Counted from the stretch's first letter, positions 715-63,247 are shown. The stretch: DNA of 64,000 bases from an uncultured Spirochaetota bacterium (GCA_963768055.1 CAVYGN010000001.1:672001-736000); one strand, 5' to 3'. Notes: generated from the letters alone by a model not told the origin. Program-made: numbers and translations.

Positions 715-1465
715 AAATTACTCCTTATCAGTGCATATATGGTACTAAAATAAGACCGTTTTGTCAAATAACAAGAACTGTCAGTTCTATTTTTGAGAGC
801 GAATGATAACACTGCATTATCAAGGGTTTTCGGTTTGTTCATTTTTCTTTATATCAATAAATTCAACACTCACTTTGTTTTGTTTGCCGATAAAATATTT
901 AATTACTTTTGCTTTTTCCTGGATTTCTTTAATATTTTCTTCAAAGACTTTTTCAATTTTATCTTCGGTTTTATCATTTAATGTAGTCATTAATATATTT
1001 TTTACTTCATCATCATCCATATTAATATAATTTCTTAAGACAACTTCCTCTGAGTCGCCTGTCAGTTTTGAAACCAATTTAATATCATGCGTTTGTTGCC
1101 ATAAAAAAGTAGCGCTTGAATGTCTAATAACATAAATTGTAAGATCTTTGTCAAGGTTAAATACCTTTTTAATAGTATTCCATTTGTTTTTATAAATCCC
1201 TCTCGTTTTTGAATTAGGGTATTTCTCCCTCCGACAATCCGCTTCATTGCGGGATCAACGTATCTTTCTGCATCGTTCGTATCTTCGTATCCAGCAATCC
1301 TTGAGAAAACAGACTGTCGTAGTTGAGCTTATAGGTATAAATAATAGATCAGACATCGAAGGTGAATTTTGATAAATCTGAAGGATGCGATTAAAATAAT
1401 GGTTAGGATGGAATTAAATGAATAATAATTACCACGGAAAGGATAATTTCAAAAGGTGATTTCAA

Positions 1466-1945
1466 ATGAATTCTTACAAAAGATTATTCGGTTCAGGACC
1501 AATTTGTTTGCTGACAGGTTTCATATTATTTTTTATTGCATATTATTTGAAAATTGTATTTCATGCCCCTCAAATATTTATTGACCAGAAAATATTACGT
1601 TTAGCAATTTTTACTATACTGACCTCAATCACTATTATAATCAGCATTTGGATCTTTACATCATTAAGCCTGGAATCAAGAGGGAGAACATTGATAACAA
1701 CTGGCGCTTTCAAATACTTCCGTCATCCTTTATATGCCGCTTTTATAACATTTTTCTCTTTCGGATCGGCTATTCTATTAAATAACTGGATATTTATCTT
1801 ATGGGCTTTCCTTCTGCATTTTATTGGACATTTGCTTGTCGCAAGGGAAGAGAAGATGTTGAAAGAAATATTCCCAAATGATTATGAGGATTATTGTAAA
1901 AATACCGGAAGATTTATCCCGAGATTGATAATAAAAAGGCAGTAA
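1466..1945 (+). CDS. Isoprenylcysteine carboxyl methyltransferase/PEMT family membrane protein
   Basis: 'LITTGAFKYFRHPLY', 'EEKML', 'Y..YC..TGRFIP'. Confidence 0.8.
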   Translation: MNSYKRLFGSGPICLLTGFILFFIAYYLKIVFHAPQIFIDQKILRLAIFTILTSITIIISIWIFTSLSLESRGRTLITTGAFKYFRHPLYAAFITFFSFGSAILLNNWIFILWAFLLHFIGHLLVAREEKMLKEIFPNDYEDYCKNTGRFIPRLIIKRQ

Positions 1946-2100
1946 GAATTATGACACAAAAGGCTTGCAGGTCCTGCATGCATTAAACCTGAATTGGGGC
2001 ATTAAATTATTTTGGACTGAAAAAATTAGCAAAATATATGTTGAATAATTCATTCCGGAATGGCATAATATAAAAAGAGTCTATTAAAATTTGGGGAAAT

Positions 2101-2952
2101 TTGATGACTGAAAAATTCAATAGTTCTGTAAGCACAATGCTGCCTGTTAAAATGAAGCTTAATTTTGTGTATATTAACACAATTATTCTTATGGCATTAA
2201 TGATTTTTGTTTCGGTTTTTGGAATACTTAATCAAAATAAAATATATCCGGGTAAAGAATTATCAATAAATTTTATCTCGAATGATATATGCAATCTAAC
2301 TCTTGGCTTACTGATTATTGTAATTTCAATGCTTCTTACATTAAAGGGGAATCTTGCGGGGTTATTATTTTATCCGGGAGCGCTATTTTACATCACTTAT
2401 GATTATGTAAACTATCTTTTGGGATTGCCATTTAATATTTTATTTATTCCATATCTTATTCTTGTGATAGTTAGTATTTATACCATAATCGGATTGATTC
2501 TCGGAATAGATAGCGAGCAAGTATATAAAAAACTCAATGGTTATGTCCCTATAAGAACGGCAGGATCAACATTGTTTGTATTAGCCTGTTTGGTGATAAT
2601 ATTTCAGCTATATGCAATTGTAATTGCCTTAATAAAACAATCAAATATAGATCATATTATGATTGCGCAATGGATTGATGACCTTGTTATCGCATCTCCG
2701 CCATTTATTATTATTGGTTTTTTAATGATGCGCCGTAAAGCCTTAGGATTTACAGCGGGAGTTGGTTTGCTTCTTTTTTGGGGTTTATTGTGTGTCGGAG
2801 TTATTCTCATAATTATATTTAAAAGTGTTCTTACAAATACTTCGATTGACATTACAGGTTTATTAGTGGTTTTAGCATCGACTCTTATAATTCTCATACC
2901 TTTAATTTTATTTATAAGAGGTATTAATAAGGCTGTTAAAATAAAACCATAA
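2101..2952 (+). CDS. Hypothetical multi-pass membrane protein
   Basis: 283 aa with many hydrophobic segments. Confidence 0.65.
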   Translation: MMTEKFNSSVSTMLPVKMKLNFVYINTIILMALMIFVSVFGILNQNKIYPGKELSINFISNDICNLTLGLLIIVISMLLTLKGNLAGLLFYPGALFYITYDYVNYLLGLPFNILFIPYLILVIVSIYTIIGLILGIDSEQVYKKLNGYVPIRTAGSTLFVLACLVIIFQLYAIVIALIKQSNIDHIMIAQWIDDLVIASPPFIIIGFLMMRRKALGFTAGVGLLLFWGLLCVGVILIIIFKSVLTNTSIDITGLLVVLASTLIILIPLILFIRGINKAVKIKP

Positions 2953-3058
2953 GAAATTTAACGGCTTGATTTATTGTTTCACCTTCCAATTGTATTGTCA
3001 TTCTCCACGGGATTAGAATAATACTGAGTCGGTTTATTACTTTAAGTAGGAAGAAATT

Positions 3059-3772
3059 ATGCAGGAAATAATTGAAGGCATTTTAACGGAAGAATTACCT
3101 TCTAATATTTATACTTATGGGTTTGCCGACTTGAACAATCTTTTATCAACCATTTATAAAGATTATCAATATGGAATTTCATTAATGAGAAAATTGGATG
3201 ATGAAATTATTGATGAAATTTCCGAGGGACCAACTTTAAAGTATTGGAACCATTACAAAGAAATAAATAATGAGTTGAGGGAAAAAGTTATTATAATAGC
3301 CAATCTATTAAAATCAAAAGGTATAGAAGCTATTGGGATTTCTTCGGTTGAAGATGATGAACGTGATGATAATTATGAGAAATATTTAAGGTATAGATTA
3401 TCACATAAAATGGTGGCAACTCGTGCTGGTTTTGGATGGATTGGGAAAACAGATTTATTTATTTCAAAGAAATATGGTCCAAGGATTAGATTAGCATCTA
3501 TTCTTATAAATTCAAAAGTTCAATCAAAGGATATGCCTTTAAATGAAAGTCTTTGCGGAATTTGTTCCGTTTGTGTTGATTTTTGTCCTGCAAAAGCGGC
3601 TAATGGCAAATTATGGAATATCAGTACAGATAGGGATGAGTATTTTGACGCTTTCAAATGCAGGGATAATTGCGTAAAATTAACCACAGATAAAATCGGT
3701 AAAGATGAAAGATTATGTGGAATTTGTGTGTCTTTATGTCCAAGAGGGAAATTGAATAAAGTAGTACAGTAA
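3059..3772 (+). CDS. Epoxyqueuosine reductase-like 4Fe-4S protein
   Basis: 'LSHKMVATRAGFGWIGK', 'GPRIRLASI', CxxCxxCxxxCP and CGICxxxCP. Confidence 0.75.
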   Translation: MQEIIEGILTEELPSNIYTYGFADLNNLLSTIYKDYQYGISLMRKLDDEIIDEISEGPTLKYWNHYKEINNELREKVIIIANLLKSKGIEAIGISSVEDDERDDNYEKYLRYRLSHKMVATRAGFGWIGKTDLFISKKYGPRIRLASILINSKVQSKDMPLNESLCGICSVCVDFCPAKAANGKLWNISTDRDEYFDAFKCRDNCVKLTTDKIGKDERLCGICVSLCPRGKLNKVVQ

Positions 3773-3841
3773 AACAGATTTTATTTAGCTCTTCCTCTCC
3801 CTCTGCTTTGCCTGTTATAGTATGGGGATTAGCCTATTAAT

Positions 3842-5028
3842 TTGAAGGAGAGATTAATGTTTTCCTTAGATTTAAAGTATGGATGTAATCCACATCAGGG
3901 AAATGCGAAACTTCTATTTAATAAAAAAGACCCACCATTAAAAGTATTAAATGGGAGCCCATCTTATATAAATATATTAGATGCCTTTTCAGCCTGGCAA
4001 ATGGTTAAAGAATTAAAGAAAACATTAAATATTGAAAGTGCGGCATCTTTTAAACACCTCAGTCCCGCAGGGGCGGCGATCGCAAAACCATTGAGTGATG
4101 AATTTAAAAAATCTCAATTTATAAATAATTTAGACTTATCGCCGATAGCCATGGCTTATTTAAGGGCTAGAGGAGGAGATAGGATGTGTTCTTTTGGTGA
4201 CGCGATATCTGTAAGTGAAGAAGTTGATATTACACTTGCAAATATTATTAAATATGAAGTATCTGATTTGATTATTGCGCCAAAATTCAATCCTAAAGCC
4301 CTGGAAATATTAAAATCCAAAAAAAATGGAGGATATTTAATTCTTGAAATTGAAAATGATTTTGAAGGTCCAGAGATTGAAACAAGAAGTATTTTTGGGT
4401 TTACGCTTGAACAAAATAGAAATTCAATATTAATTGACGATAAAATTTTTAAAAAAATCGTCACTATTAATAAAACAATAAATCAATCCGTTCTCCAAAG
4501 TCTTATATTAGCTACGATTTCATTGAAATATACGCAATCGAATTCTATTTGTGTGGCATACGACGGGCAATTAGTTGGAGTTGGAGCAGGTCAACAATCC
4601 AGAGTTCATTGTTTGAGATTAGCTTGCAATAAAGCTGACAAATGGTTTTTACAGCAGCATCCGAAAGTATTAAATTTGGATTTTAATGACAATCTCAAAA
4701 AAGTTGATAAAACGAATTGTGTCGATCAATACATTCTCTGGGATGAACTTTCAGAAAATGAGAAAATGTTGTTATTTTCAAATTTAAAAAAATGCCCGGC
4801 ACCTTTAGGTAGGGAGAGAAGGAAATATTCATTAAAAATTACAATGGAATTTGCTTATCATCGGATGCTTACTTCCCATTTAGAGATAATATTGACAGAG
4901 CAAGTAGAAGCAATATTGAGTTTATAGCGCAACCTGGCGGTTCTTTACGTGATGATGATTGTATCAAAGCTGCTGATGAATATAATATGGTTATGTTTCA
5001 TACTGGAATTCGATTATTTACGCATTAA
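3842..5028 (+). pseudogene. AICAR formyltransferase (PurH transformylase-domain-only type), frameshifted near 4815
   Basis: 'LKYGCNPHQ', 'SFKHLSPAGAA', 'YTQSNS', 'GAGQQSRVHC'; the C-terminus 'SSDAYFPFRDNIDRA...IAQPGGSLRDD...RLFTH*' continues in another frame to the stop at 5028. Confidence 0.8.
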
Positions 5029-5098
5029 ATTTAAAATTGTTCCTCTGCTTTGCCAGCTATGAGGAGCGGGATTAGAATAAAGGACTTTCAGGTTAAGG

Positions 5099-5947
5099 GT
5101 GAGATGGAGATATTTTTCCATGATATTTAATTTTAGAGATGTAGAATTATATTATGAAATCTATGGTGAAGGTGTCCCAATAATAATGATCCATGGATGC
5201 AGACCGGATCATCGATTGATGAAAGGGTGCATGGAGCCAATTTTCCAATCAATAAACGGCTCTTGGAAACGTATTTATTTTGATTTGCCAGGCATGGGCA
5301 TGACAAAATCACAGCCCTGGATTATCAATTCTGATCATATGCTGGAAATAATATTAAATTTTATTGATACAATTATTCCAGGTCAACAATTTATTATAGC
5401 TGGCGAATCTTATGGTGGATATTTGGCGAGAGGTATTATTAAAAAACGGTTCTCAAATGTTGATGGTCTTCTTTTGATTTGTCCGGTAGCTGAACCTGAA
5501 CATCGAAAAAATACTCTACCATTATCTAAAGTGTTTGAAAAAGATGAATCTTTGCTAAAGAGTCTTTCAGAAGATGATAGGCGCCAATTTGAATTTATAA
5601 GTGTAATACAGAATGCTAATGTTTGGGATCGTTTTAAAAATGAAATTCTACCGGCTTTAAAAATTGCGGATACATCATTTATTGATGAAAGATTTAGTAA
5701 TAGCTTTTCTTTTAGTTTTAATGCGGATAATCTTGAAAGCCAGTACATGAAACCAGTATTAATAATAACAGGAAGGCAGGATTTTATTGTCGGTTATCAA
5801 GATATATTTAAAATTATTGAGAATTATCCAAGAGGTACTTTTGCAGTGTTGGATAAAGCCGGTCATAATTTACAAATTGAGCAAGTTTATTTGTTTAATG
5901 AGCTTGTAAAAGATTGGCTAAAAAGACTATCTGAAGAATCTGTATAA
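5099..5947 (+). CDS. Alpha/beta hydrolase
   Basis: 'MIHG', 'DLPGMG', nucleophile 'GESYGG', 'AGHNL'; likely true start ATG 5121. Confidence 0.85.
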   Translation: MRWRYFSMIFNFRDVELYYEIYGEGVPIIMIHGCRPDHRLMKGCMEPIFQSINGSWKRIYFDLPGMGMTKSQPWIINSDHMLEIILNFIDTIIPGQQFIIAGESYGGYLARGIIKKRFSNVDGLLLICPVAEPEHRKNTLPLSKVFEKDESLLKSLSEDDRRQFEFISVIQNANVWDRFKNEILPALKIADTSFIDERFSNSFSFSFNADNLESQYMKPVLIITGRQDFIVGYQDIFKIIENYPRGTFAVLDKAGHNLQIEQVYLFNELVKDWLKRLSEESV

Positions 5948-6197
5948 TGAGGCTCTTCCGCTCCCTCTGCTTTGCCTGCTATGAGGGATGGGGATTGAGG
6001 ATATTTTTAGATAAATTATAGAATTTCTTAAAGCTTTTATTGTCAATCATTCTATCAATTGGCACGAAAAACCACAAAATATCGTCTGATTTCACTTGGG
6101 AAAAATTGTACTGACTTGACTTGTTTCACACATACTACATTTCCCCCTCACATCTTACGATAATTAATTCATAATAATAATAATAGGAGTTTCCAAA

Positions 6198-6554
6198 ATG
6201 GATGAAGGTAAAATATTAGAATCGGATCTGCTTGATTTAAAAACAGCTGCTAAAAGCATTGGTGTCAGTATCTTCACATTTAAGACTATGCTGCGTGATA
6301 ACAATACCCCTGTTGTAAAAAAAGGCAGAAGCATTTTTATCAAGAAATCCCGAATAGAAGAGATGTTCACTCTTTCTGAGAAACCTTACAATGAGGTTGT
6401 TAAGTCCAGAGGCAAGAAAGGGGCTAAAAAAGCTATAAAGGCTGCAGGCAAGAAAACTGTGGCAAAGAAGCCTGTCGCCAAGAAGCCTGGCGCTAAGAGA
6501 GGACCCAAGCCGAAGGTGAAGAAAGCGGAGGGGGAAGCTGAACAGACACAGTAG
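6198..6554 (+). CDS. Excisionase-like HTH DNA-binding protein with Lys/Ala-rich tail
   Basis: 'LLDLKTAAKSIGVSIFTFKTML...KKGRSIFI' resembles the HTH_17/Xis fold; tail 'KKGAKKAIKAAGKKTVAKKPVAKKPGAKRGPKPK'. Confidence 0.6.
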   Translation: MDEGKILESDLLDLKTAAKSIGVSIFTFKTMLRDNNTPVVKKGRSIFIKKSRIEEMFTLSEKPYNEVVKSRGKKGAKKAIKAAGKKTVAKKPVAKKPGAKRGPKPKVKKAEGEAEQTQ

Positions 6555-6712: not shown

Positions 6713-7525
6713 CTAGCTGCTTGCGCTTGAATAATTTTTAACAGCCGCTTTCCACAGTATTCGTGTAATAGCAATTGCTATGACAGGCGCCGATACACCC
6801 CAGATGAAATAAATAAGATTCATCCTGCCAAGGATGAAAATAGTGGGGAAATTTGTTATTATAAAAATAGGGATGATATAAATTCCGATATTTTGAATAA
6901 TTTTATTATAAACGGACATGGGCACATTGTTAATATCCCAAAAAGAATTGAATGTTTCGCCTATGGCGCTTGTGTTGATAAACCAGAATGTCAGGATCTG
7001 CGGCAGCAAAAAGAGCGCGTAACCGATTACAACGCCGCTTGCTAAAAAAGAGGCGTAGCCGATTATGTCGATTAAGGTTAATGACAGATGCAGCCTGGAG
7101 AGGCCTATGACAACCAGAACTATACCTATGGAAACATCGATCAAAAACAATCCGAAATCCGAACGCCTCAATGTCGCCATGAATTGAAGAGATACAGGCT
7201 TGATAATATAAAAGTCCAATATGCCTTCCCGGACCAGGGTCCTCAGATTTATAAAGTTTATCATGAACAGGCCGGCGTGAAAACCGGTTAATATTATAAA
7301 TGTCCCGATAAAGACTAAAAGTTCGTTGGGAGAAAAACCGTTTATTTTCGAACCTGAACGGAAAATTACAAAGACATAGAGGAGTTTGACGCAAAGATAT
7401 CCAAGTTCCATGGCGATCCCGGTAAAAAAGTTAACACGATATTCCATTTGCGCCAATATATTATTTTTCAGGAAAAACCAGTAAACAATAATATGCTTTT
7501 TTATAATCTTAAGATAGTTCCTCAT
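6713..7525 (-). CDS. ABC-2 type permease
   Basis: 'MEYRVNF', 'G.LD.YIIKPVS.QF'; start more likely MRNYL at 7525 than the ORF-track start at 7642. Confidence 0.8.
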   Translation of the reverse strand: MRNYLKIIKKHIIVYWFFLKNNILAQMEYRVNFFTGIAMELGYLCVKLLYVFVIFRSGSKINGFSPNELLVFIGTFIILTGFHAGLFMINFINLRTLVREGILDFYIIKPVSLQFMATLRRSDFGLFLIDVSIGIVLVVIGLSRLHLSLTLIDIIGYASFLASGVVIGYALFLLPQILTFWFINTSAIGETFNSFWDINNVPMSVYNKIIQNIGIYIIPIFIITNFPTIFILGRMNLIYFIWGVSAPVIAIAITRILWKAAVKNYSSASS

Positions 7526-9317: not shown

Positions 9318-9548
9318 TATTAAATTTCTCCGGGAAATTAATCGGAAAAGTGTCTTTAAAATTTATCGGTTGTTCTCAATATCAATGTTTATCATTATTT
9401 TATCATTTTATTACGGGCAATGGCTATCCCGATAGGGCGGCCTTGGATCAAGTGACATCATCGAAATTTTGATTAATCTATGGGTCGGGATTAGAATAAT
9501 TGTTAATTTGTTTTAAAGGTTACCCGGCCGTACTCAATAAGGGGCGAT

Positions 9549-10232
9549 ATGAAAAAAGAAGAATATTTCCGGATGGATAAAATTGACCCTGAAGAATTAT
9601 GCAGGCAGCTTAGAAAGCCTTTCGGGGAACAGGGAAAATTAGTAGGCGAAAAAATGAATGTTTCCAACAATTCAATATACGCTTTAATGTTTTCAAAAAT
9701 AGAATTCAATGATAATGATAATATTTTAGAAATCGGGTTCGGCAACGGGAAATTTTTTAAACGGTATTTTGAAAAAGCAAGAAATATAAAAGTTTCCGGG
9801 ATTGATATTTCCGATGTTATGCTGGAAGAAGCTTCCATAATAAACAAGGGATTAATTGAAAGCAACAAACTTTTTATTTATTGTGAAAGCTGTCAAAAAA
9901 TGTCTTTTCCCGATGGAAGTTTTGATAAAATCATCTCTCTTAATACCATATATTTTTGGGAACAGAGAGATGCGCAGCTGGAAGAAATAAAAAGGGTTTT
10001 AAAGAGGAATGGAAAACTTGTAATAGGGTTCAGACCTAAAAGTATAATGGAAAAACTGGCTTTTATAAACAATTCTTTTAATTTATTTGAATCTAATGAA
10101 ATAGCAAAATTATTAGAAAAACACAACTTTAAAAATATTCGGGAATTCATGCAGAATATCTCAAGGAAAACGGTAGACGGCAGCGACATCGATTCTATCG
10201 ATATCTGCATATCGGGAGAAAAACAGGAATAA
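9549..10232 (+). CDS. Class I SAM-dependent methyltransferase
   Basis: 'ILEIGFGNG', 'GIDIS', 'RVLKRNG'. Confidence 0.85.
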   Translation: MKKEEYFRMDKIDPEELCRQLRKPFGEQGKLVGEKMNVSNNSIYALMFSKIEFNDNDNILEIGFGNGKFFKRYFEKARNIKVSGIDISDVMLEEASIINKGLIESNKLFIYCESCQKMSFPDGSFDKIISLNTIYFWEQRDAQLEEIKRVLKRNGKLVIGFRPKSIMEKLAFINNSFNLFESNEIAKLLEKHNFKNIREFMQNISRKTVDGSDIDSIDICISGEKQE

Positions 10233-10411
10233 AACGGTTCTTCCAACCCTTTCTTCTTTTTATGCTTATAATCCCCGCATTTATTTTCTCGGGGCATGGA
10301 GATATCGGCTGAATAGAATTAATAACGCATACAGCGGATTTAGTGGAATCGGAATTGGCAAAAGGATCTGCAAATTAGTTGAAAAACAACCAATGAAATC
10401 AGGGGTAATTA

Positions 10412-11098: not shown

Positions 11099-11234
11099 TC
11101 GGGAGACCAAATTGGATTATAATATAAGAGAGATCACAATGAGCGATTATGATAATTTAATTTCCTTCTGGAAAAGTGTAACCAGGGGTACGATGCGCCG
11201 GATCATCTTGACATAATAACTTATTTATTTTATA

Positions 11235-11259: not shown

Positions 11260-11316
11260 AGATATTCAAAAAAAAGGGTATTTGTAAAATCCCGGATTGG
11301 GTAAGGCGGTTATAAT

Positions 11317-52050: not shown

Positions 52051-52055
52051 AGGGT

Positions 52056-52601: not shown

Positions 52602-52895
52602 ATGGATTATAAGTTTGATGACAGACGGAGAGATGTAAGGAAACCTCTTCTATTGGATGCTGAATATGAATTAAATGGAACTTTATGTTCGTGTAATATT
52701 GTTGACATATCAGCTCGAGGCATAGGAATGAGAGTAAAAGGATGCCTTATAGTTGGGGATAAAATAAATATAATATTGGATAAAAATAATATTACCGCAA
52801 AAGTAGTCAGGGTAGATGGAAATATTGTCGGAGTGATGTTTGACCAATTATCAAATGAAATGCTGAATTATATCCTGAGTTTAAATACATTATGA
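52602..52895 (+). CDS. PilZ domain protein
   Basis: 'RRRDVR', 'DISARG'. Confidence 0.8.
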   Translation: MDYKFDDRRRDVRKPLLLDAEYELNGTLCSCNIVDISARGIGMRVKGCLIVGDKINIILDKNNITAKVVRVDGNIVGVMFDQLSNEMLNYILSLNTL

Positions 52896-52962
52896 AACTT
52901 ATTATGAAAGTTCTATTGACTAATATCTGGTATAGGGATTAAGATGTTGATAGGAAAAAACT

Positions 52963-53796: not shown

Positions 53797-53910
53797 ATAA
53801 ATTATTTGCTCTTCCCCCCTCTGCTTTCCCTGCCTGTATATGACTTATAGTTCCGAGTAAGCAAAATAAATGTTGAATAATTCATCCCTGGATGACATAA
53901 TAAAGAATAA

Positions 53911-54441
53911 ATGATTATGGGGGAAAATATGACTGCTAAAGAAAAAGTTGTCGAGATAATGACATATATTATTGTTCCATCTGCCTTTCTGATAATTTCA
54001 CCATTATTAGCTAAATTTCTCGATTATATAATCCTAAAGGCAAATTATTTATTAGCACCTAATTCTGTTATTATATTAATTGGCATCTTCATATCATTGA
54101 TAGGATTATTTTTAGTATTTTGGACTATTTTCTTATTTAAAAAATTCGGGAAAGGAACGCCAAATCCGACTATTCCGCCTAAAGAATTGGTGATTAAAGG
54201 TCCATATAAAATTGTGAGAAATCCGATGGCGCTGGGAGGGGCTATTTTATTACTTGGAGAAGTGATAATTTATTACTCATTATTTTTACTGATACTGTCA
54301 ATATTGTATGTAATTATACTTTATTTTAATGCAATGCTGATTGAAGAACCTGAATTGATTAAAAGATTTGGCAAACCGTATGAACAGTATTTAAAAGAAG
54401 TTCCAAGATTTTTCCCGAAAGTATTTGGTCCGGCAAAATAA
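53911..54441 (+). CDS. Isoprenylcysteine carboxyl methyltransferase family protein
   Basis: 'GKGTP', 'LVIKGPYKIVRNPM', 'EEPEL..RFG..Y..Y...VPRF'. Confidence 0.8.
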   Translation: MIMGENMTAKEKVVEIMTYIIVPSAFLIISPLLAKFLDYIILKANYLLAPNSVIILIGIFISLIGLFLVFWTIFLFKKFGKGTPNPTIPPKELVIKGPYKIVRNPMALGGAILLLGEVIIYYSLFLLILSILYVIILYFNAMLIEEPELIKRFGKPYEQYLKEVPRFFPKVFGPAK

Positions 54442-54560
54442 TTGGCATATTCTATAGTAGTTCTTTACTTGCCTCACATTTTCCAGCATTGCCAGGCAAT
54501 TGAATTTTTGATAAATCGCCAAGAGTGGATAGAATAATAAAAATCAGAAAAGGAGTAATT

Positions 54561-54890
54561 ATGAAAATTGAAAATCTGCCATTTATTGTATCTGATTGGA
54601 ATAAAGGAAATAGTCAAAGAGTAAATGGTGAAAGTGGATTCTCGGATATTAAAATATTTGAGCAGGGTAATATCAGAGTTAGATTAGTCGAGTATTCACC
54701 TAATTACAAAGCAGACCATTGGTGCAAAAAAGGGCATATTGTTTTTATTATTGATGGAGATGTAATGATAGAAATAGAAGACGGAAGAAAATATGAACTA
54801 TCAAAGGGTATGAGTTTTCAAGTAGCTGATAATATCGATGCGCATAAAGCCTATTCTGTTAAAGGGGCGAAAGCATTTATTGTGGATTAA
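54561..54890 (+). CDS. DHCW-motif cupin fold protein
   Basis: 'RVRLVEYSPNYKADHWCKKGH'. Confidence 0.8.
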   Translation: MKIENLPFIVSDWNKGNSQRVNGESGFSDIKIFEQGNIRVRLVEYSPNYKADHWCKKGHIVFIIDGDVMIEIEDGRKYELSKGMSFQVADNIDAHKAYSVKGAKAFIVD

Positions 54891-54965
54891 TGAGAATTGT
54901 CGCTTCCGTCCCCACTGCTTTTTCCTGCTATGAGGGAGGTTAGAAATGAATTTTGAGGTCATTTT

Positions 54966-55820
54966 ATGATAGATTTAAAATTATTAAAAAAAATAGCAAC
55001 AGGCGGTCAGGCAGAAATATTTGAAATTAATGAAAATATGGTTTTAAGGTTGCTTTATAGGGAAGAAGACAACATTTTAGCCGAATATGAATTTAAATCA
55101 TTGCAAATTGCAAAACAGAATGGAATATATGTACCCGCTGTTTTTGAGATAGTAAATGTTGATAATAGACCTGGCATAATAATGGAAAAAACTAATGGTA
55201 TTACAATGACAAAAATGATTCAAGCAAATCCTTTTAAATTGTTTAAAAAAGCGAAAGAACTTGGTGAACTTCATTACAATTTAAATAAAATTGATGCCCC
55301 CGAAGGTTTTATAAATTTAAAGCAAATGGCAATGAAATTTGTTGAAAAATCGACTTTTATTGATTCGGAAATTAAGAATTTTGTTTATATGATATTAGGG
55401 CAATTACCAGACGGTGTTAAATTGTGCCACGGAGATTTTCATCCCGGGAATATTATTATCAGAGATAGCAACTCATATATAATAGATTGGTGTGGGGCAA
55501 CAAGCTCTGACCCCATTGCAGATGTCGCTGATACATATTTAATATTAAAAAATATGCCGAGATTGCCAGATATATCATTCTTTTCTTATCAAATTATGAA
55601 ATTAGCCGGATTGTTAGTTGCTAAAACGTATTTTAATTCATATAACCGTCATTATAAAATTGACACAAATCTGTTTTCCAAATGGCTGGTAGTTAGAGCT
55701 GCTGAAAGAACATATTATGGAATGTCCTCTGAAAAGGTGGCTTTAGTAAAATTCATTTATAAATGCTATAATGAATATTCTAATCGGAAAGATAATTATA
55801 AGTGGTATAAATTCTTATAG
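54966..55820 (+). CDS. Aminoglycoside phosphotransferase/choline kinase-like protein
   Basis: 'HGDFHPGN', 'IIDW', 'DPIAD'. Confidence 0.75.
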   Translation: MIDLKLLKKIATGGQAEIFEINENMVLRLLYREEDNILAEYEFKSLQIAKQNGIYVPAVFEIVNVDNRPGIIMEKTNGITMTKMIQANPFKLFKKAKELGELHYNLNKIDAPEGFINLKQMAMKFVEKSTFIDSEIKNFVYMILGQLPDGVKLCHGDFHPGNIIIRDSNSYIIDWCGATSSDPIADVADTYLILKNMPRLPDISFFSYQIMKLAGLLVAKTYFNSYNRHYKIDTNLFSKWLVVRAAERTYYGMSSEKVALVKFIYKCYNEYSNRKDNYKWYKFL

Positions 55821-55885
55821 CTCTTCTTCTCCCTCAGTTTGCCTGCTATGAGGGATCGTGCTAATGAATTTGTTCAAGGATATTT

Positions 55886-56401
55886 ATGAAATTAATCGTT
55901 ATTGTTGCACAAGATAAATTCAATAATACTGAATATAAAACGGTCATTAATACACTTGAAAAACATAAAATATTTTTTGAAACAGCATCAGTCTTAAAAT
56001 CAAAAGCAGTCGGTTATGGCTCTTTTTCTATCATGCCAGATAAATCTATCCAGGAATTAATTGTTTCTGATTATGATTGCTTTATCATTATTGGTGGGTC
56101 AGGGTGTAAGAAACATTTATGGGAATATGATATTCTTCACAATAAAATTAAAACTGCTTTTGAAAGCAACAAAATTTTAGCTGCAATTTGTCTGGCACCG
56201 ATATGTTTTATTTATTCGGGAATAATCAAAAACTCTTTTATTACGGCACATAAAACTGCTGAAACATTAAAAATAATAAAAGAAAGCGATAATATTTACA
56301 AAGACAATGATGTATATGTAAATGAAAATATTATTACAGCTAATGGACCAAAAGCATCTTATGAATTTTGTAAGTTAGTAATAAATAAATTAAAAATGTG
56401 A
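55886..56401 (+). CDS. DJ-1/PfpI family protein
   Basis: 'IIGGSG', 'AAICLAP', 'IITANGP'. Confidence 0.8.
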   Translation: MKLIVIVAQDKFNNTEYKTVINTLEKHKIFFETASVLKSKAVGYGSFSIMPDKSIQELIVSDYDCFIIIGGSGCKKHLWEYDILHNKIKTAFESNKILAAICLAPICFIYSGIIKNSFITAHKTAETLKIIKESDNIYKDNDVYVNENIITANGPKASYEFCKLVINKLKM

Positions 56402-56469
56402 GTTTCCTACCTCCCTAAAAAGAATCCCTTCGGTATTTTGTAAATATAATTGGGAAGTTTACTCGTCCA

Positions 56470-57048
56470 GTGCTGAATGCGATTGAAAAAGTGAAGGATT
56501 TGCCAATTGACATTATTGCTCCTTCACATGGACTGGTGTGGAGAAAACATCCCGAACATATTATTGAACTTTATAAGAAATGGTCTGAATATGCTGATGC
56601 CCCGACGGAAACGGGCATTACTCTGATTTATGGAACAATGTATGGAAACACAGATGTGATGATGAATGCAGTAGCTCAAGGAATAGCAAGCGAGGGTGTC
56701 CCTGTCAGTATTTTTGATGCTGCCCGCACTCACCCGAGCTATATCCTTCCATCCCTCTGGACACAGAAAGGTGTTTTAATTGGTGCTCCCACATATGAAG
56801 CAAGCCTTTTCCCTCCAATAGCTCGGATTCTTGAAATAGCCGCTTTAAAAAGAGTTATGAATAAAAAAGCCGCAATGTTCGGCAGCTATGGATGGAGTAA
56901 AGGTGCTTTAACAGAAATTAAAAAGTTGATTGACCCATTGAAATGGGAAATGCCGATGACTTTTGAATTCCCAGGGGGACCAGACAAAGGAAAATTAAAA
57001 CAGGGAGAAGAGTTTGGCGCAGCATTCGCAAGGCTTGTTAAAGCTTAA
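56470..57048 (+). pseudogene. Flavodiiron protein (FprA-like) C-terminal fragment
   Basis: 'IAPSHGLVW', 'YGTMYGNT', 'GAPTY', 'FGSYGWS'; N-terminal MBL domain largely missing. Confidence 0.75.
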
Positions 57049-57417
57049 GAATAAACAGAAAATAAGCGATATGTATGTTCTCGACATGATTTCCCTGCTC
57101 CTTCTGCTTTGCCTCACCTCACCCTTGTACAGCATTGCCGGACTCCTATGAATTTTGATAAATCTCAAGGACAGGATTAGAATAATAGTGAGTGGAGGGT
57201 ATATGACAAAAGAAATATTCCTTCTATTAAATCTGGTTCTTGCTTTCGAAGGATGAATCTGGCGGTAAGAGTGTTTATCTGTCAAAGATTTTAAAGACTC
57301 ATTGGATAAGAACGGTACTATGGAATGCAAACGGTTTGATGCTTCTATTTGTGACCATTCAGATTTTATCTAAGTAGTTTAGAGTTGGGGCTCCAAAATT
57401 TTATGAAAGGATTGAAT

Positions 57418-58245
57418 ATGAAAAAAGCCTTTTTAATAGTAAGTAGTCTTTTTATCTTAACCTTATCAGCATATAGCGTTGAAAATTCCTCTTCAAAAAA
57501 TAACATCTTTATTAAAGATTTGAGCACCTATTTTACAAATTATGATGGCTGTTTTGTGCTATATGACAATTCTAAAGGAATATATACAATATATAACGAA
57601 GAAAAAAGCATGAAAGAAATATCCCCCTGTTCCTCATTTAAAGCAATAAATTCTCTTATTGGCTTAGAAACAAAAGTTGTTGATGATGAGAAAACAGTCT
57701 TTAAATGGAATGGGACAAAATATCCAATGGATTCCTGGAACCAGGATCTTAATATGGCACAGGCAATATCTCTTTCGGCTTACTGGTATTATCAAATTGT
57801 TGCAAAGAATGTTGGTGAAAAAAGGATGCAATATTATTTAAATGCTATTGATTATGGTAATAAAGATATATCAGGTGGGATAACTCAATTCTGGGAGCAA
57901 TCTTCATTAAAAATCTCTCCAAAAGAGACAGTTGATGTTTTGAGGAAAATTTACTTTTATAACGTCCCTTTTTCCCGAAGAAATATTGGCATTCTTAAAA
58001 AAATAATACGATTAAAAGAGCAGAATGGTATTATCTTATATGGGAAAACTGGAACTGGTTTATCAAGCTCTGGATTTGCTTTTAATCCTGGTGATGAGAG
58101 CATAAATGGATGGTTTATTGGATTTGTTGAAAATAATGGGAAAGTTTATTTTTTTGCGACAAATATAGGTGCTAAAAAAAATGCTACTGGATGGGTGGCA
58201 AAGGATATAACTTTGAATATATTGAAAAATAAAAATATATTGTAA
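57418..58245 (+). CDS. Class D beta-lactamase-like (OXA/BlaR1-sensor-like) protein
   Basis: Signal peptide; 'PCSSFK', 'SAYWYY', 'YGN', 'FWEQSSLKIS', 'GKTG'. Confidence 0.8.
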   Translation: MKKAFLIVSSLFILTLSAYSVENSSSKNNIFIKDLSTYFTNYDGCFVLYDNSKGIYTIYNEEKSMKEISPCSSFKAINSLIGLETKVVDDEKTVFKWNGTKYPMDSWNQDLNMAQAISLSAYWYYQIVAKNVGEKRMQYYLNAIDYGNKDISGGITQFWEQSSLKISPKETVDVLRKIYFYNVPFSRRNIGILKKIIRLKEQNGIILYGKTGTGLSSSGFAFNPGDESINGWFIGFVENNGKVYFFATNIGAKKNATGWVAKDITLNILKNKNIL

Positions 58246-58291
58246 AATAGCTCTTCCGCTCCCTCTGCTTTGCCTGCTATGAGAAGGTATT

Positions 58292-58990
58292 ATGAAAGAA
58301 GAAATCAAAACAATTAAATTAGGTATAGTTAATTGCTTCCTTATAAAATCTGATATAGGTTTTATGTTAATAGACACTGGATTTTCAAGCAGCCGTATTA
58401 AACTTGAAAATGAACTTGATTGCGCAGGGTGTCTCCCTGGAAATCTTAAATTAATTGTTTTGACTCATGGTGATGCTGACCATACTGGCAATGCTGATTT
58501 CATCCGTAATAAATATAATTCAAAAATAGCTTTGAATAAAAATGATTTAATGATGGTCGAAAGTTTTATTGAGCAAGCAAATAGTTTAAAGAATAGAGAA
58601 ACCAGTCTTTTGATTACTGGAATTATTTTAAGATTAAGTATGGCTATCACCAGTTTGAAATTTATAAATAATAAACTTAAAGCTAATTATATTAGTTTTA
58701 AACCCGATTTATATTTAGAGGACGAACAGGATTTAAAGGGATACGGGTTCAATGCGAAAGTAATTCATATTCCCGGACACACAAAAGGTTCAATTGGTAT
58801 TTTGACTGAAAATTATGACTTAATTTGTGGAGATATTCTAAGGAATTATGGAAAACCAGCGATATGTCCTCAAGGTGAAGATTTAAAAGTTCTTTATTCA
58901 AGTATCGAAAAAATTAAGAAATTAAAAATCAGAATGGTATATCCTGGTCATGGTAAACCGTTTAAAATGGACGATTTATTTAAAAATTAA
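58292..58990 (+). CDS. MBL-fold metallo-hydrolase
   Basis: 'THGDADHTG', 'PGHTKG', 'PGHG'. Confidence 0.85.
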   Translation: MKEEIKTIKLGIVNCFLIKSDIGFMLIDTGFSSSRIKLENELDCAGCLPGNLKLIVLTHGDADHTGNADFIRNKYNSKIALNKNDLMMVESFIEQANSLKNRETSLLITGIILRLSMAITSLKFINNKLKANYISFKPDLYLEDEQDLKGYGFNAKVIHIPGHTKGSIGILTENYDLICGDILRNYGKPAICPQGEDLKVLYSSIEKIKKLKIRMVYPGHGKPFKMDDLFKN

Positions 58991-59347
58991 AAAGAAAAAT
59001 AAATATGCAATTCCTGATACTTCCCATTTCTAATGTTTGTCCTTGTAATTGGCTTCATATTGGGCTTAGTATTGGAAATACATAAATATTGGTTTATCCT
59101 GGATTTTTTAGTCATTATAATTTGTGGGATCAGCGGTGTAGTGCTTTTAATTGAAAAAAAAGGCAGTAAATAAAATTTAAAGCTTATTCTTCCGCTCCCT
59201 CTGCTTTGCCTTCCTTCCCTTTTTCCAGCTTGCCACACTCCATTGAATTGATAAAAGCGCCAAGGGAAGATAGAATAAGGGATTATTCTTATATAAGAAG
59301 CGGCATATTTTGTGTTATAAAGATTGCTTTACCCCATTATTTTGTAT

Positions 59348-59746
59348 TTAAACAAAATTCTGAATCCTGAATGGTTCTCCGATTTCAACTATGTGATTAT
59401 CGGGATCATAAAATCTGAATACATTTTGCCCCCAAGCCTGTTTTTCAATCTCATGTATAAATTTTACATTCCCATCTTTAATCCTTTCAAATGCATCTTC
59501 CAAATGATCGCATTCAAAATAAATAAGCAGATTTTTGCTGCCCTGTTTGAATTTTGAAAATAATCGATCTTTCTTAAAAACAGTTTTAATCAGGTTTCGG
59601 GAATTATGAATAACGAAATGATCCTCAAAAATGACTATGGTACCGTAGTCTTCTAAAACGTGTAAACCAAGTAATTCAATATAAAACCTTTTTGAAAGGC
59701 TGATATTTTTGACAAAAACAATTGTGTTTACAAATTTTACTTTCAT
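59348..59746 (-). CDS. VOC/glyoxalase family protein
   Basis: 'SKRFY..LLG', 'WGQNVFRFYDPDNHIVEIGE'. Confidence 0.85.
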   Translation of the reverse strand: MKVKFVNTIVFVKNISLSKRFYIELLGLHVLEDYGTIVIFEDHFVIHNSRNLIKTVFKKDRLFSKFKQGSKNLLIYFECDHLEDAFERIKDGNVKFIHEIEKQAWGQNVFRFYDPDNHIVEIGEPFRIQNFV

Positions 59747-60664
59747 AGTTTTTCCTTATAATATAACTAAATAGAATAAGTATTTTAAAAGAGAATTTAT
59801 CTTTGTCAAGAGGACAGGCAAGAGTATTTTATTATAGATTCATTTGTATCAATATCATGCTCAGAATATATAACAGTGGCTAAAACTCTTATGATCCTCC
59901 CTTATGCCCCGCCTGCCTTCCCCCCTTTCCAGCTTTGCCTGACAAATGAAATTTTGATAAAAACGCCAAGAGGGTATAGAATAAGGTAATGGGATTAAAA
60001 GGTTAAATCATTATTTTGGAGGTTTTATGTTTAAGAGAGCTGTACTAATAAATTATATATTATTTTAGTGATTGAGATGAGTTATGGCAAAGAATGTTTT
60101 TGAAATTTTATTATATAGAATTAAACGTGAAGAATTTTATTTAAAATACCGAAATGCATTGAATATTAAATTATCTGAATTTTATACAGAAAAAGATCCT
60201 AATGCTTTAAATTTCGAGGATTTATTTTTGAACTTATGGAGGGCCTTGGGAATACAATCGGGTAATCGGCGCAATTAAAATATATATTTTTGGAAACCAA
60301 ATAAGAGGAGATTTATGGTTATCCGGGAAAAAAAGATATTTAAAAATAATGACTAATAAAAACATTCATAGCTTTGATAAAGCATTTGAAATTAACAGTA
60401 TTTGATAATATGACAAATTATGATATTTCTAAAAAAATAAAGGAAAGAACTTATGAGTATTTTTCGCAATACTTTGTATTGTGCTTCAAGCTCTCTTTCT
60501 TCTTCACTGTCAGAATAATCAGGCGGAATGATTGGCATAAGGGCTCCTTGTTGACTTTTTATTTTCTTTAATTATAATTTGTTTTTAACAATTTGTAAGT
60601 GATAAAAGTATTTAACAGATTGATTATCATTGTATAAAATAACATTTGATTTTAGGGGCTGCTA

Positions 60665-61993
60665 ATGTATAAAAATTTCTTTTTTACTCTTTTTATTTCA
60701 TTTGTTATTACTGGACTGTTATGGCCGCAAAATATCGAAATGAAATCTGTAACAGTCGCTGGTTTCATTAACAAAGGCAAAGCAAATCAGGCTAATATAA
60801 ATATAATGATGGGAAAATCTTTATCTACTTTCCTGGCTAAAATATCAAAAAATATAACACCATTTAAAGATGTTGAAGAAACTGCTTTAAGCAATTCTTT
60901 TTGGAGTCAGAAAGAGTTAAAAAGCAGTCAGGCAATCAATATAGCCCAACAGTTTTCAACTGAACAAGTAATAACGGGCGATTATCTGGTTAATGATAGT
61001 GGAATTATTACCATCAACGTTTATGTTTATAATGTCATAAATGGAGATTTACTGTTTAAAAGGACTTATAAGGGAGATGCTGGCCCAGAAATCTTTGATA
61101 CTATCGATAAAATGATACTGGATGTATCAGGTCTTCTTGTTGGAAAAACAATTTCTCTGGGTTATTTACAAGTTTCTATAAAGCCTAAAGATGTGAATTA
61201 CAGGCTATTCATCAATGATTCTTTTGTTAAAGTGATAAACAATCAAAATGGATACTTTGACAAATTTATAGCAGGTCAATCCATAGATATCAGCCTTAAA
61301 TCAGAGAAATCTGATGATGAAGCAATGAGGAAAATTGTCGAGATTAAAGGAGGAAATACTAATGAATTAGATTTCAATCCTTCTGGGACATTAATGATAG
61401 AGGCAATGGAAGAGGGGTTTGATGTTTATTTAAACGGGGTGAAAAAAGGTAAAACTGACAGCTCGGGGGAATTTGTTATCTCAGGTGTTGAATCTGCCAA
61501 AGATAATGCCATTCAATTAAAAAAGGGTGATGCATTATTATCTGAAACGAATATTGTAATCAAAGAAGGAGCAACAAAAGCCATTATTTTTAAACTATCT
61601 GGAGCTCAACCAATTGAAAATAAACAAAACGATGAAATTGAAGTCTGGTCAAAATATCCAAATGGAATAAAATATGTTGCAAAAAAAAGCGGGATATATA
61701 AATTTGAATTTAACAGAGGGGCATATAGAGATCAAGCAGCCAATAATTGGGAAACTCTTATCCTAATTTATACAAATAGAAATATCGTTACAGAAAGTGG
61801 TTTTCCAGTAAGATTTGATTTTAAAATTGGCAGCGCTGTTTATGAATCAACCTTGGAAAAAGCGGAACAAAAAGCGATTGGCCAAAATATATCTATTGAG
61901 ATGCAGAAAAACGATTTTGTTATTTTTGTGGATAAGCCAATTAACTATAATAATAGCTTAGGTAGTGTTTATTTAACTGTAAATCTGGAATAA
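60665..61993 (+). CDS. Exported hypothetical protein with PEGA-like segment
   Basis: Signal peptide; 'GFDVYLNGVKKGKT'. Confidence 0.55.
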   Translation: MYKNFFFTLFISFVITGLLWPQNIEMKSVTVAGFINKGKANQANINIMMGKSLSTFLAKISKNITPFKDVEETALSNSFWSQKELKSSQAINIAQQFSTEQVITGDYLVNDSGIITINVYVYNVINGDLLFKRTYKGDAGPEIFDTIDKMILDVSGLLVGKTISLGYLQVSIKPKDVNYRLFINDSFVKVINNQNGYFDKFIAGQSIDISLKSEKSDDEAMRKIVEIKGGNTNELDFNPSGTLMIEAMEEGFDVYLNGVKKGKTDSSGEFVISGVESAKDNAIQLKKGDALLSETNIVIKEGATKAIIFKLSGAQPIENKQNDEIEVWSKYPNGIKYVAKKSGIYKFEFNRGAYRDQAANNWETLILIYTNRNIVTESGFPVRFDFKIGSAVYESTLEKAEQKAIGQNISIEMQKNDFVIFVDKPINYNNSLGSVYLTVNLE

Positions 61994-62031
61994 TATTAGA
62001 TTATTTTTAGTAATTTGATGATTTATTGCAA

Positions 62032-62238
62032 TTAATCCTCTGCCAATTCCAGCACTTTCTCACCCTGGAGCTTAGTTTTAAGGGTCTCCCTGATTATTTC
62101 ATCTGATGCAGGCGCTTCTAAGGTAAGGGTAGCGATATTTTGACCGTTATCCAGTATTTCAGTAAGACAGGTTTCATCAAACTGCTTGGTCTGTATCCAA
62201 TATAATCTCCCGCTGAATTCAATATAATGTGGCTGCAT
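62032..62238 (-). CDS. Small hypothetical protein
   Basis: 68 aa with strong RBS (AAGGAGG on the minus strand). Confidence 0.45.
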   Translation of the reverse strand: MQPHYIEFSGRLYWIQTKQFDETCLTEILDNGQNIATLTLEAPASDEIIRETLKTKLQGEKVLELAED

Positions 62239-62399
62239 ATTGCCCTCCTTGTGAAAATATCGGATAAATTTAAAATGGAATAAGGGGAAGATAAGGAGTC
62301 TGGCAAGCCAGAATAATCTTTTTGAGGCTATGAAAATTGGAAATTTTGATAAAAGCGCTAAGAGGGGATAGAATAAAGGAAATTTTAAGGGGATTAGAT

Positions 62400-62702
62400 A
62401 TGGTTAGAGTATTAGTTTTATATCCGAGAATTGAAGGCAAAAAGTTTGATTTTAATTATTACAAAAATCATCATATGAAATTGGTAAAAGAAAAATTAAA
62501 CCCTGTTAAAGTTGAGATTGATTTTGGGATTGTTAATCAGGAAAATCCATCACCATATATTGTGGTCAGCCACATGATTTTTGAATCACAAGAGCAGCTG
62601 ACAAATCGTTATAAGGAATTCTCAAAAATATTAAATGAGGATAAGCTGAAATTCACTGATATTGATATAATTAGACAGATAAGTGAAATAATTGATTTAT
62701 AG
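62400..62702 (+). CDS. EthD family protein
   Basis: 'VLYP...FDFNYYKNHHMKLV', 'FTDI...QISE'. Confidence 0.75.
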   Translation: MVRVLVLYPRIEGKKFDFNYYKNHHMKLVKEKLNPVKVEIDFGIVNQENPSPYIVVSHMIFESQEQLTNRYKEFSKILNEDKLKFTDIDIIRQISEIIDL

Positions 62703-62804
62703 GTTTTTTGTTCAAGTGTTTGAAAACCCGCATGTTCTTTTCCGAATAAAGAAATTTTGATAAATCAATGGGACGGTATTAGAATAATGATTTGGATGGT
62801 TCAA

Positions 62805-63170
62805 ATGAATAATAATTATCACGGAATAATACTTAATGTGAGTCAAGTAAACCAGTCAATATTTAATTCTTTAAAGATTATTGGAAAACTTAAAGTAAAA
62901 AATTCAAATTGGATATTGTATAAGGTTGAAATTAATCCTAATGATTTAGATGTTATAACATTAATCCTGCAAGAAAACATGAATGAAAATAAATTTTATT
63001 TCCATTTCTATAGAAATAATGAATTAATTATTGTATTTAAAAATCGAATATTTAAAATATCAACAGAGAAATCAACCTGGTCAGAAGCTATAGAATATGG
63101 AAAATCACTTGCAATTCCGGAAAAGCAGCTTGATTTTGTGCCCAATAGAATTGAAGATGAAACATATTAA
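62805..63170 (+). CDS. Hypothetical protein
   Basis: 'FYFHFY..NELIIVFK', 'AIEYGKSLAIPEKQLDF'. Confidence 0.6.
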   Translation: MNNNYHGIILNVSQVNQSIFNSLKIIGKLKVKNSNWILYKVEINPNDLDVITLILQENMNENKFYFHFYRNNELIIVFKNRIFKISTEKSTWSEAIEYGKSLAIPEKQLDFVPNRIEDETY

Positions 63171-63247
63171 ATTTTGCTCTTCCGCTCCATTTGCTCAGCT
63201 TGCTGCGGTTTGGGAGAATAAATGAATTGAAGTTATGGCGGCTTTGA

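Follow-up and report, generated by a model that had tools for sequence, protein, structure and literature searches.

Putative promoter-bearing linkers delimit integron-like gene cassette arrays without IntI or attC in a Spirochaetota chromosome

The PeSL elements of T4-type phages are conserved motifs of ∼100 bp that combine a sigma-70 promoter with a terminator and lie between a stop codon and the next Shine–Dalgarno (SD) sequence (PMC2839356). PeSLs are described as concentrated beside non-essential open reading frames (ORFs) and as mediating insertions and deletions by recombination, whereby genes lying between two copies are deleted, inserted, and circularised (PMC2839356; PMC4122927). A repeat in a corresponding position, here called the linker, recurs in a 64,000-nucleotide stretch of DNA (C1:672001-736000, hereafter the window) from an uncultured Spirochaetota bacterium (GCA_963768055.1, genome G000; two contigs, 3.69 Mb, 41.4% GC, completeness 94.75%). 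The linkers separate co-oriented units of one or two accessory genes in array regions of 27–33% GC. We consider it about an even call that these units are terminator/promoter regulatory cassettes that are shuffled by short-homology recombination between linkers.

The linker shares with PeSLs the form of a ∼100-bp composite motif that runs from the stop codon to the next SD sequence or start codon, a sigma-70-type promoter whose −35 element follows an AT-rich stretch, a place beside small non-essential genes in hyperplastic regions, and insertion, deletion, and replacement breakpoints within the motif. In contrast to PeSLs, the linkers reside in a bacterial chromosome (in tRNA-linked islands and at other sites) and not in a phage, and they possess no stem-loop, a C/T-rich, G-poor tract standing at the place of the terminator. 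Their cargo is also different and of integron type (GNAT, methyltransferase (MTase), VOC, DinB, SMR, and beta-lactamase-like proteins). Within the literature covered, PeSLs are the nearest published system, from which chromosomal location, C-rich tract, and integron-type cargo set the linkers apart. The part of the literature on integrons of Spirochaetes and Brevinematales and on attC-less cassettes that was covered contains no account of this repeat or of these arrays.

The assembly of integron-type cargo is commonly ascribed to the action of IntI on attC sites. Other repeats and modules have distinct hallmarks: pdif modules are flanked by 28-bp XerC/XerD sites in alternating orientation, the Correia elements of Neisseria and the enterobacterial repetitive intergenic consensus (ERIC) sequences are intergenic repeats that supply promoters or terminators, carry inverted repeats at their ends, and are found in either orientation, and phage morons are promoter–gene–terminator units inserted between other genes. 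As in integrons and clusters of attC sites lacking integron integrases (CALINs) (PMC4889954), the arrays of G000 consist of co-oriented one- or two-gene units of unrelated function with a repeat after the stop codon; cargo types, low GC content, and an order that varies between arrays and species complete this likeness. However, the genome has no IntI, the linkers lack R″/R′ boxes and a single-strand hairpin, they conserve sequence and not structure, and most linker-bounded units have their own putative promoter inside the repeat. With the dif modules of Acinetobacter (pdif, XerC/XerD; PMC6449649, PMC13141974), they have in common small accessory-gene modules, short repeated sites, shuffling between replicons, and the absence of a dedicated element-encoded recombinase, whereas the linkers point one way, are 40–100 bp long, and show no 11-6-11 dyad. 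Like Correia and ERIC sequences, the linkers are repeated intergenic DNA that would supply promoters or terminators to their neighbours; unlike them, they have no inverted-repeat ends, keep a single orientation, and bound units that move.

The linker, 40–100 bases long, combines a C/T-rich A module (GCTCTTCCCCCCTCTGCTTTGCC...) with a second, B module of the form AAATTTTGATAAA-N-TAGAATAA. In the L-type form, the stop codon is followed by the A core, ∼30–45 nt of C/T-rich sequence, ATTGAAATT, TTGATAAA, a spacer, TAGAATAAGG, a short leader, and the ribosome-binding site (RBS); the C/T-rich part often contains a second CWGCWTTGCC-like word. The reference linker of this type (21944–22040, + strand) comprises the A core, a C/T-rich tract of ∼45 nt, an AT-rich stretch, and the B module TTGATA-N17-TAGAAT. 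The A core, CTGCTTTGCC, is the most conserved segment outside the promoter. A role of the A core as a Chi-like site was discarded, since its 33 occurrences in the genome are clustered in arrays and do not form a genome-wide oriented octamer-type signal.

The S-type form consists of the A core followed by TGCTATGAGGGATGGGG and contains no −35 element and no promoter. Its reference copy (25552–25600, + strand) is made up of the A core and TGCTGTGAGGGATGGGG and extends as far as the RBS of the following gene. Because the stretch after the core, TGCTATGAGGGATGGGG, matches the B2 spacer (TGAGGGACGGGAT), we infer that the S-type is a deletion derivative that has lost the C/T tract and the −35 element. 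Left half-sites occur as well. In one kind, TTGATAAAAGTGCC gives way to unrelated sequence, both at 26280 and in the congeneric relative G020 (G020, G021, G022, and G023 are the congeners compared); in the other, a gene remnant follows TTGATAAA at 27656.

Both modules were converted to profiles and scanned against the entire 3.69-Mb genome. The A profile gave 33 matches (19 in the window; 30 on the + and 3 on the − strand), and the B profile gave 51 (22 in the window; 49 on the + and 2 on the − strand). Merging A and B matches at E ≤ 0.01 resulted in 68 junctions, of which the window holds 35, and a list drawn up by hand, with half-sites and a third promoter module counted in, contains 43 copies, the number proposed by an initial reading of the window made from the sequence alone (the sequence-only reading). 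That reading had placed all copies on the + strand, which is true of the direct-repeat families of the window (D4–D15, 12–17 copies each). It had also let the repeat begin shortly past a stop codon; indeed, A matches start 0–23 nt past the end of a same-strand ORF in 25/27 cases, compared with 12% of random positions. An ORF starts ≤93 nt after the B match in 41/43 cases, although random positions reach 53% and the control is therefore weak. Matches cluster at C1:505-763 kb and C2:1854-1860 kb and, on the − strand, at C2:1153-1155 kb; nearly all linkers are co-oriented with the genes and grouped in a few low-GC arrays. Exact identity with another junction extends over at least 20 nt in 46/68 junctions, at least 25 nt in 26, and at least 30 nt in 16, and the exact tracts common to many copies measure 20–46 nt.

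The alignment of 19 B copies contains 10 invariant columns, nine of which fall within TTGATA and TAnAAT and the tenth directly after the −35 hexamer. The hexamers are 17 nt apart, and the spacer between them varies, falling into two subfamilies (AAGCGCCAGGAGGGGA and ATCTGAGGGACGGGAT). The genome's own tRNA promoters have the same form: TTGnnn-N-TAnnnT precedes 23/48 tRNA genes, with a 17-nt spacer in 22/23, and tRNA-Tyr in the window possesses its own promoter TTGACA-N17-TAGAAT. A generic promoter scan of 21.5–33 kb flagged the B copies at 22004, 24211, 27107, 29119, and 32083, each with 10/12 matches and a spacer of 17. Because the invariant positions are those of the −35 and −10 hexamers and the form is that of the tRNA promoters, the B module appears to be a functional-type, native-type sigma-70 promoter.

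A third promoter module, B3 (family D16), reads TTGAAT-N17-CATAAT, carries a TTCCGGAA palindrome in its spacer, and is present in four window copies (2018–2071, 31010–31063, 36556–36609, and 53850–53903, + strand). The TTCCGGAA-centred palindrome resembles an operator, and B3 is kept in two species (G023 L047, ∼6950–7000). An alternative is that the linkers are shared cis-regulatory elements of a single regulon, with an operator in the spacer and perhaps an island-encoded binder, and play no part in rearrangement, the arrays being shuffled by unrelated processes. The two spacer subfamilies, the identity of the B spacer between G000 and G023, the palindromic spacer of B3, and the small lysine-rich, putatively DNA-binding proteins encoded just downstream of four arrays (see below) are in line with it. 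We nonetheless rate it as unlikely, for homology between copies of the same cassette repeatedly ends inside the linker, the promoterless S-type has spread too, and the homologous segments are all of cassette size.

At the 5′ side of the promoter, 15 L-type tracts, taken from the stop codon to the −35 element, contain 29% C, 12% G, and 38.5% T. Intrinsic-terminator-like sites number three between 21.5 and 33 kb versus 5.0 in shuffled sequences, and none lies at a cassette end. Rho is encoded in the genome (653 bits, cut-off 509). Since the linker has no hairpin, Rho is the probable route of termination, and the C/T-rich tract might act as a Rho-type terminator or insulator. Translational coupling by a hairpin whose pyrimidine arm masks a purine-rich SD sequence was dropped: the conserved GAGGGATGGGG usually lies apart from the real SD sequence of the next gene, and the putative hairpin folds no better than shuffled sequences.

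The linkers do not belong to the integron system. TIGR02249, the IntI model, gave 16 matches in the whole genome, the best at 87.8 bits against a cut-off of 265, and pairs of RYYYAAC and GTTRRRY boxes 42–137 nt apart are absent from both strands of the 64 kb (mean of 30 shuffles, 7.5), with 20 RYYYAAC and 36 GTTRRRY boxes occurring singly on the + strand. The absence of both IntI and paired attC ends, which the sequence-only reading had noted for the window, thus holds, and for IntI it extends to the genome. The imperfect hairpin that it had considered possible does not: 12 single-stranded DNA folds, both strands included, range from −3.9 to −9.0 kcal/mol (z −1.19 to +1.76), ten RNA folds have z −1.84 to +0.24, RNAalifold predicted 0 pairs and no consensus structure for 18 S-type copies, and linker alignments show no dyad symmetry. 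The linker conserves sequence, not structure, and it is not an attC site; the attC and hairpin readings were ruled out by the missing box pairs and the shuffle-level folds. A known RNA family was also excluded, as Rfam returned only two tRNAs at the gathering threshold and nothing at E ≤ 1 over 21.5–33 kb. Features of Xer dif modules are missing, with no alternating orientation and no dyad in the linker alignments. Co-orientation and cargo are as in integrons, and the cassettes are not promoterless, the window holding 22 B promoter modules. Pfam agrees with the cargo proposed at the outset (GNAT, SAM-MTases, VOC/glyoxalase, DinB, SMR, DUF1330), the class D beta-lactamase-like member being a 286-aa Transpeptidase-domain protein.

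When cassettes are compared between arrays, it becomes apparent that the same cargo recurs in different surroundings. The two-gene cassette of a cupin and an MTase (42785–43872, + strand) has three genome copies, the others being C2:1854782-1855876 (94.9%) and C1:610066-610761 (91.4%), each with different neighbours; the homology begins within B and ends directly after CTCTGCTTTGCC. A DUF5063-like unit (18629–19024) is 97.7% identical to a copy on C2, and here the homology ends just past the −10 hexamer. The same pattern extends to other species: core DNA is 70–77% identical between species, and some cassettes reach 89–96%. The MBL cassette (37554–38419, + strand) shares 89.85% identity over 867 bp with C24:33230-34094 of G023, the homology spanning B module to A module with unrelated flanks, and further matches concern Fer4_16 (93%, G020), DinB (88.5%, G020), and a SAM-MTase (91–96%, G021). 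All 15 homologous pairs between arrays and species, insertion sequences (IS) aside, measure 290–1095 bp and hold 1–2 ORFs.

The order of the cassettes differs as well. A cupin-X-Fer4_16 arrangement in G020 faces cupin-Y-Z-Fer4_16 in G000, the intervening cassette or cassettes having been replaced; DJ-1 and MBL are neighbours in G020 and two cassettes apart in G000; and ICMT and GNAT are separated by 24 nt in G020 and by 25 kb in G000. A collapsed linker could account for the short junction that joins DJ-1 to MBL in G020. Units are reordered between arrays and relative to congeners, with homology that stops within the repeat or at its border, and these comparisons support the view that the arrays behave as modular cassettes.

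Homology breaks off at several places and not at a single position, namely past CTGCTTTGCC, within the B spacer, or past the −10 hexamer, a scatter that fits homology-driven exchange rather than a fixed crossover. The sequence-only reading had proposed gene capture or shuffling through a different recombination site. Its modular, reordered one- or two-gene units stand. A dedicated site is not supported, because the promoter hexamers are invariant, dyad and structure are absent, breakpoints are scattered, and no recombinase consistently accompanies the linkers.

We prefer to view the linker as a composite regulatory unit that would separate independently expressed accessory genes. Its 3′ part would be a sigma-70 promoter (AT-rich stretch, TTGATA, 17-nt spacer, TAGAAT, short leader, and RBS), and its 5′ part, a C/T-rich, G-poor tract of 25–100 nt, would end or dampen upstream transcription, probably via Rho; the S form, with tract and −35 element deleted, would simply join two genes. 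Homologous or short-homology recombination between copies could then excise, duplicate, delete, and re-insert the intervening DNA, and frequent deletions within linkers may add to the variation. The outcome would be integron-like arrays with typical cassette cargo that need neither integrase nor attC, by a mechanism as proposed for the PeSL cassettes of T4-type phages. Promoter activity, Rho-dependent termination, and linker–linker recombination are in this scheme deduced from the DNA sequence.

Several points weigh against recombination between regulatory linkers. Identity of 20–46 nt is near the lower limit for efficient RecA recombination. Homologues in G021 (MTase) and G020 (DinB and O-methyltransferase) have no linker on either side, their homology being confined to RBS and ORF, although an exchange of this kind would be expected to retain a linker beside the gene, barring its later deletion. 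Furthermore, ∼40 nt of the promoterless S-type are conserved in 18 copies and across three species, which is not explained by regulation alone. Throughout the genome, ORF ends are often followed by C-rich tracts (193 in total), and the 27/193 located in array zones, which cover 7.6% of the genome, amount to an enrichment of only ∼1.8-fold, so the C-rich tract is a weak argument for a Rho utilization site. Finally, circular or variant forms were sought only in low-depth contigs, which provide no evidence either way. These contigs, from three DNA runs of a single freshwater-sediment study, cover part of the window in a fragmentary manner and contain no joints; their loose ends match other linker copies or the version of a relative. 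Among RNA runs, none was listed as containing DNA of the window.

Because the promoterless S-type is conserved and linker-less ORF copies exist in relatives, another explanation stays alive, in which the linker as a whole, or else its A core (CTGCTTTGCC), serves as the recombination site of a dedicated, so far unrecognised double-strand sequence-specific capture system, analogous to an integron. Strict co-orientation, integron-typical cargo, and the A core as the most conserved non-promoter segment with two breakpoints directly after it would suit such a system, as would half-sites that stop abruptly at TTGATAAA or TTGATAAAAGTGCC in two species, the S-type preserved across species, and ORF-only units that are 89–96% identical in genomes where they are linker-less. 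However, the best TIGR02249 score (87.8 vs 265 bits) speaks against IntI, no recombinase is found consistently beside the arrays and none at C1:603-613 kb or at arrays Ia and Ib, the tRNA-Tyr island of G020 has an intact integrase and no linkers, breakpoints occur at several positions, dyad and hairpin are missing, and no reverse transcriptase is encoded. A dedicated site is in our judgment improbable. We give similarly little credence to its more specific version, an undiscovered Brevinematales capture system that would use the linker, with its invariant CTGCTTTGCC core just past the stop codon, as its site, move bare RBS-plus-ORF units between species, and add a terminator/promoter linker on insertion. 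Such a double-strand capture system, if real, would parallel the integron in function while relying on unrelated machinery. Retro-transfer of mRNA-sized units was rejected, as the genome has no RVT_1 match.

The window contains two tRNA genes, tRNA-Arg(GCG) (16899–16974, − strand) and tRNA-Tyr(GTA) (17795–17878, + strand), the latter being the integration site of the following island or islands. Downstream lies a tyrosine-integrase fragment (17949–18629, + strand) that retains the N-terminal part only, without a catalytic domain, and shares 31% identity over 205 aa with a 353-aa integrase beside tRNA-Tyr in G020; at 18629 it is fused to a 5′-truncated cassette. A second tRNA-Tyr 3′ end (ATCCACCCCCGACCA) together with its downstream sequence, including GTACCA repeats, forms an att-like boundary at 52190–52300 (+ strand). 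Because tRNA 3′ end and downstream sequence recur there, arrays II–III and array IV sit in two tandem tRNA-Tyr islands. GTACCA(N5)GTACCA direct repeats at 17939–17980, 52055–52085, and 52274–52304, beside both tRNA-Tyr 3′ ends, are probably arm-type binding sites of the island integrase. The ORF at 51257–51946, tried as an integrase, is not integrase-like.

Outside the window, the C2 array lies ∼13 kb downstream of tRNA-Ala in a region with three tyrosine-recombinase ORFs, which are generic Xer- or phage-type (TIGR02249 ≤51 bits). Arrays Ia and Ib and the array at C1:603-613 kb have neither a tRNA-island context nor an adjoining recombinase, and the G020 tRNA-Tyr island with its intact integrase (L037) has no linker match. 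A recombinase that co-occurs with the repeat, which the sequence-only reading had advised looking for, was not found, none being consistently adjacent to arrays. The proposed association with tRNA-integrated islands applies to part of the window (tRNA-Tyr) and to the C2 array (tRNA-Ala), but it does not look causal, because arrays also occur outside islands (1363–6000, 9462–13099, and C1:603-613 kb).

The A and B models were also scanned against 35 genomes belonging to the order. The B model matched 47 times in G000, 18 times in G020, and 5 times in G023, with ≤2 weak matches in all others, and the A model matched 28 times in G000 and 4 times in G020; S-type and B3 copies were recognised by eye in G023. 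The exact B1 pattern is found in one other GTDB genome contig (G023) and in two contigs from metagenomes, of which one represents the same locus, and neither the B1 nor the S-type pattern has a match in viral contigs. The linker family is genus-restricted and most expanded in G000, and the profile scan recommended by the sequence-only reading hence yielded junctions clustered in arrays and few relatives that carry the family.

The strong variation of B matches among congeners (47, 18, 5, 2, and 2) and the orthologous genes of G020 and G021 that have no linker could also indicate a small non-autonomous, promoter-bearing element akin to a miniature inverted-repeat transposable element (MITE), which colonises intergenic sites and does not move genes. 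The linkers, however, have no terminal inverted repeats, do not fold, and show no target duplications, and their orientation is almost always that of the genes (A 25/27 and B 41/43 on the + strand). No clean empty site was found; the flanks of linker-less orthologues are unrelated to those in G000 instead of being the same sequence minus an insert, and gene order itself is shuffled. A known MITE or repetitive extragenic palindromic element, a possibility raised from the start, is likewise not indicated by the Rfam result, the lack of inverted repeats and fold, and the single orientation relative to genes. We regard the element-only interpretation as having a low probability.

The window contains five arrays, all on the + strand. 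Array Ia (1363–6000) comprises five co-oriented cassettes, encoding an ICMT/PEMT-like protein, a 283-aa protein of unknown function, Fer4, an AICARFT-like protein, and an alpha/beta hydrolase; it starts with a B2 promoter module (1363–1406) and has S-type linkers at 3788–3832, 5042–5084, and 5950–5999. Array Ib (9462–13099) starts with a B2 module (9462–9505), followed by five genes (three SAM-MTases, an ATC hydrolase, and a 77-aa ORF), and its junctions are degenerate or without linker. Array II (18629–32594) has ∼17 cassettes and an IS3-family insertion (20019–21616). Its L-type linkers are found at 18946–19026, 21944–22040, 22996–23060, 24168–24247, 27040–27144, and 29075–29155, its S-type linkers at 25552–25600, 27765–27815, 28254–28284, and 29763–29800, and its left half-sites at 26225–26295 and 27590–27663. 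An A module with B3 (30960–31063), a B1 module alone (32075–32118), and a terminal A module (32554–32594) complete the array.

Array III (36556–46800) encodes DinB, SMR, MBL, two unknowns, SDR, VOC, GNAT, cupin plus MTase, further unknowns, and 8xMP. Between GNAT and cupin, an IS3-family copy (41189–42785) is inserted within the B1 spacer at 41189. S linkers lie at 37113–37160, 38890–38940, and 43848–43900, L linkers at 37515–37591, 38398–38495, 39306–39377, and 41100–41188 (cut by the IS), and an A-like module at 40573–40615. Array IV (52494–63627) begins with two PilZ genes, PEMT, a cupin-like gene, an APH-like kinase, DJ-1, flavodoxin, the class D beta-lactamase-like gene, and MBL, and ends with EthD, an unknown, and a DinB fragment. 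It has L linkers at 54462–54543, 57085–57191, 59183–59284, and 59880–59990, S linkers at 54898–54945, 55819–55863, and 58248–58291, B2 modules at 52494–52536 and 62749–62793, an A module with B3 at 53806–53903, a B1 module at 62336–62383, and an A-like module at 63174–63215.

Two IS21-family elements are located on the − strand, one at 33641–36198 (IstA/IstB; 99.9% identical copies elsewhere in the genome) and one at 46758–49292 (9 more copies, 99.8–100% identity). The 1.6-kb IS3-family element at 49720–51316 (− strand), which also occupies 20019–21616, 41189–42785, and 63628–64000, has ∼15 near-identical genome copies. It also occurs in G020 and, in fragments at contig ends, in G023, and it has no match in G021 or G022, the same species split as for the linker. 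A 442-aa ORF (60665–61993) without Pfam or NCBIfam match has at least 6 paralogs on both contigs (66–69% DNA identity), and its flanks (60450–60608 and 62030–62316) are repeated at C1:623-624 kb and C2:1143-1144 kb; it may represent an unrecognised mobile element. Directly upstream of the first array, the − strand encodes a ParE toxin/Phd-YefM antitoxin pair (93–714).

The lysine-rich proteins form a family of 81–123 aa that starts with MPGKRK and has a coiled-coil-like N terminus and a conserved KKWIKIDPKIGAFVRE core. Its members (window 45334–45660, C1:614653-614925, C2:1860267-1860638, and C2:1151985-1151740 on the − strand) are all four encoded downstream of an array, at most ∼2 kb from its last linker. 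Two of the four, those in the window and at C2:1860267, end in an AT-hook-like KRG(R/P)KP tail, and PKKRG forms the C terminus of the remaining pair. In the window, the protein is part of an in-frame fusion with a GGCT-like ORF (44716–45660). The family has no convincing Pfam match (best E = 0.0081, 16.8 bits, far under the curated cut-off) and no Atlas lead above 0.86, and its members may act as nucleoid or silencer-type proteins. A 118-aa protein encoded at the end of array Ia (6198–6554) shows a weak excisionase-type helix-turn-helix (HTH_17, E = 0.079) and shares its lysine/alanine-rich tail and 3′ flank with the lysine-rich family (99 nt, 83% identical to 45588–45686).

In this organism, the architecture and cargo of integrons occur without IntI or attC, and the promoter-bearing linker also marks the sites of gene swaps, both within the genome and between species. 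The promoter, the C-rich tract, and linker–linker recombination are amenable to experiment in E. coli. If recombination between linkers suffices, it would constitute a simple, enzyme-free route to cassette arrays, one documented to date in T4-type phages and bound to escape integron finders.

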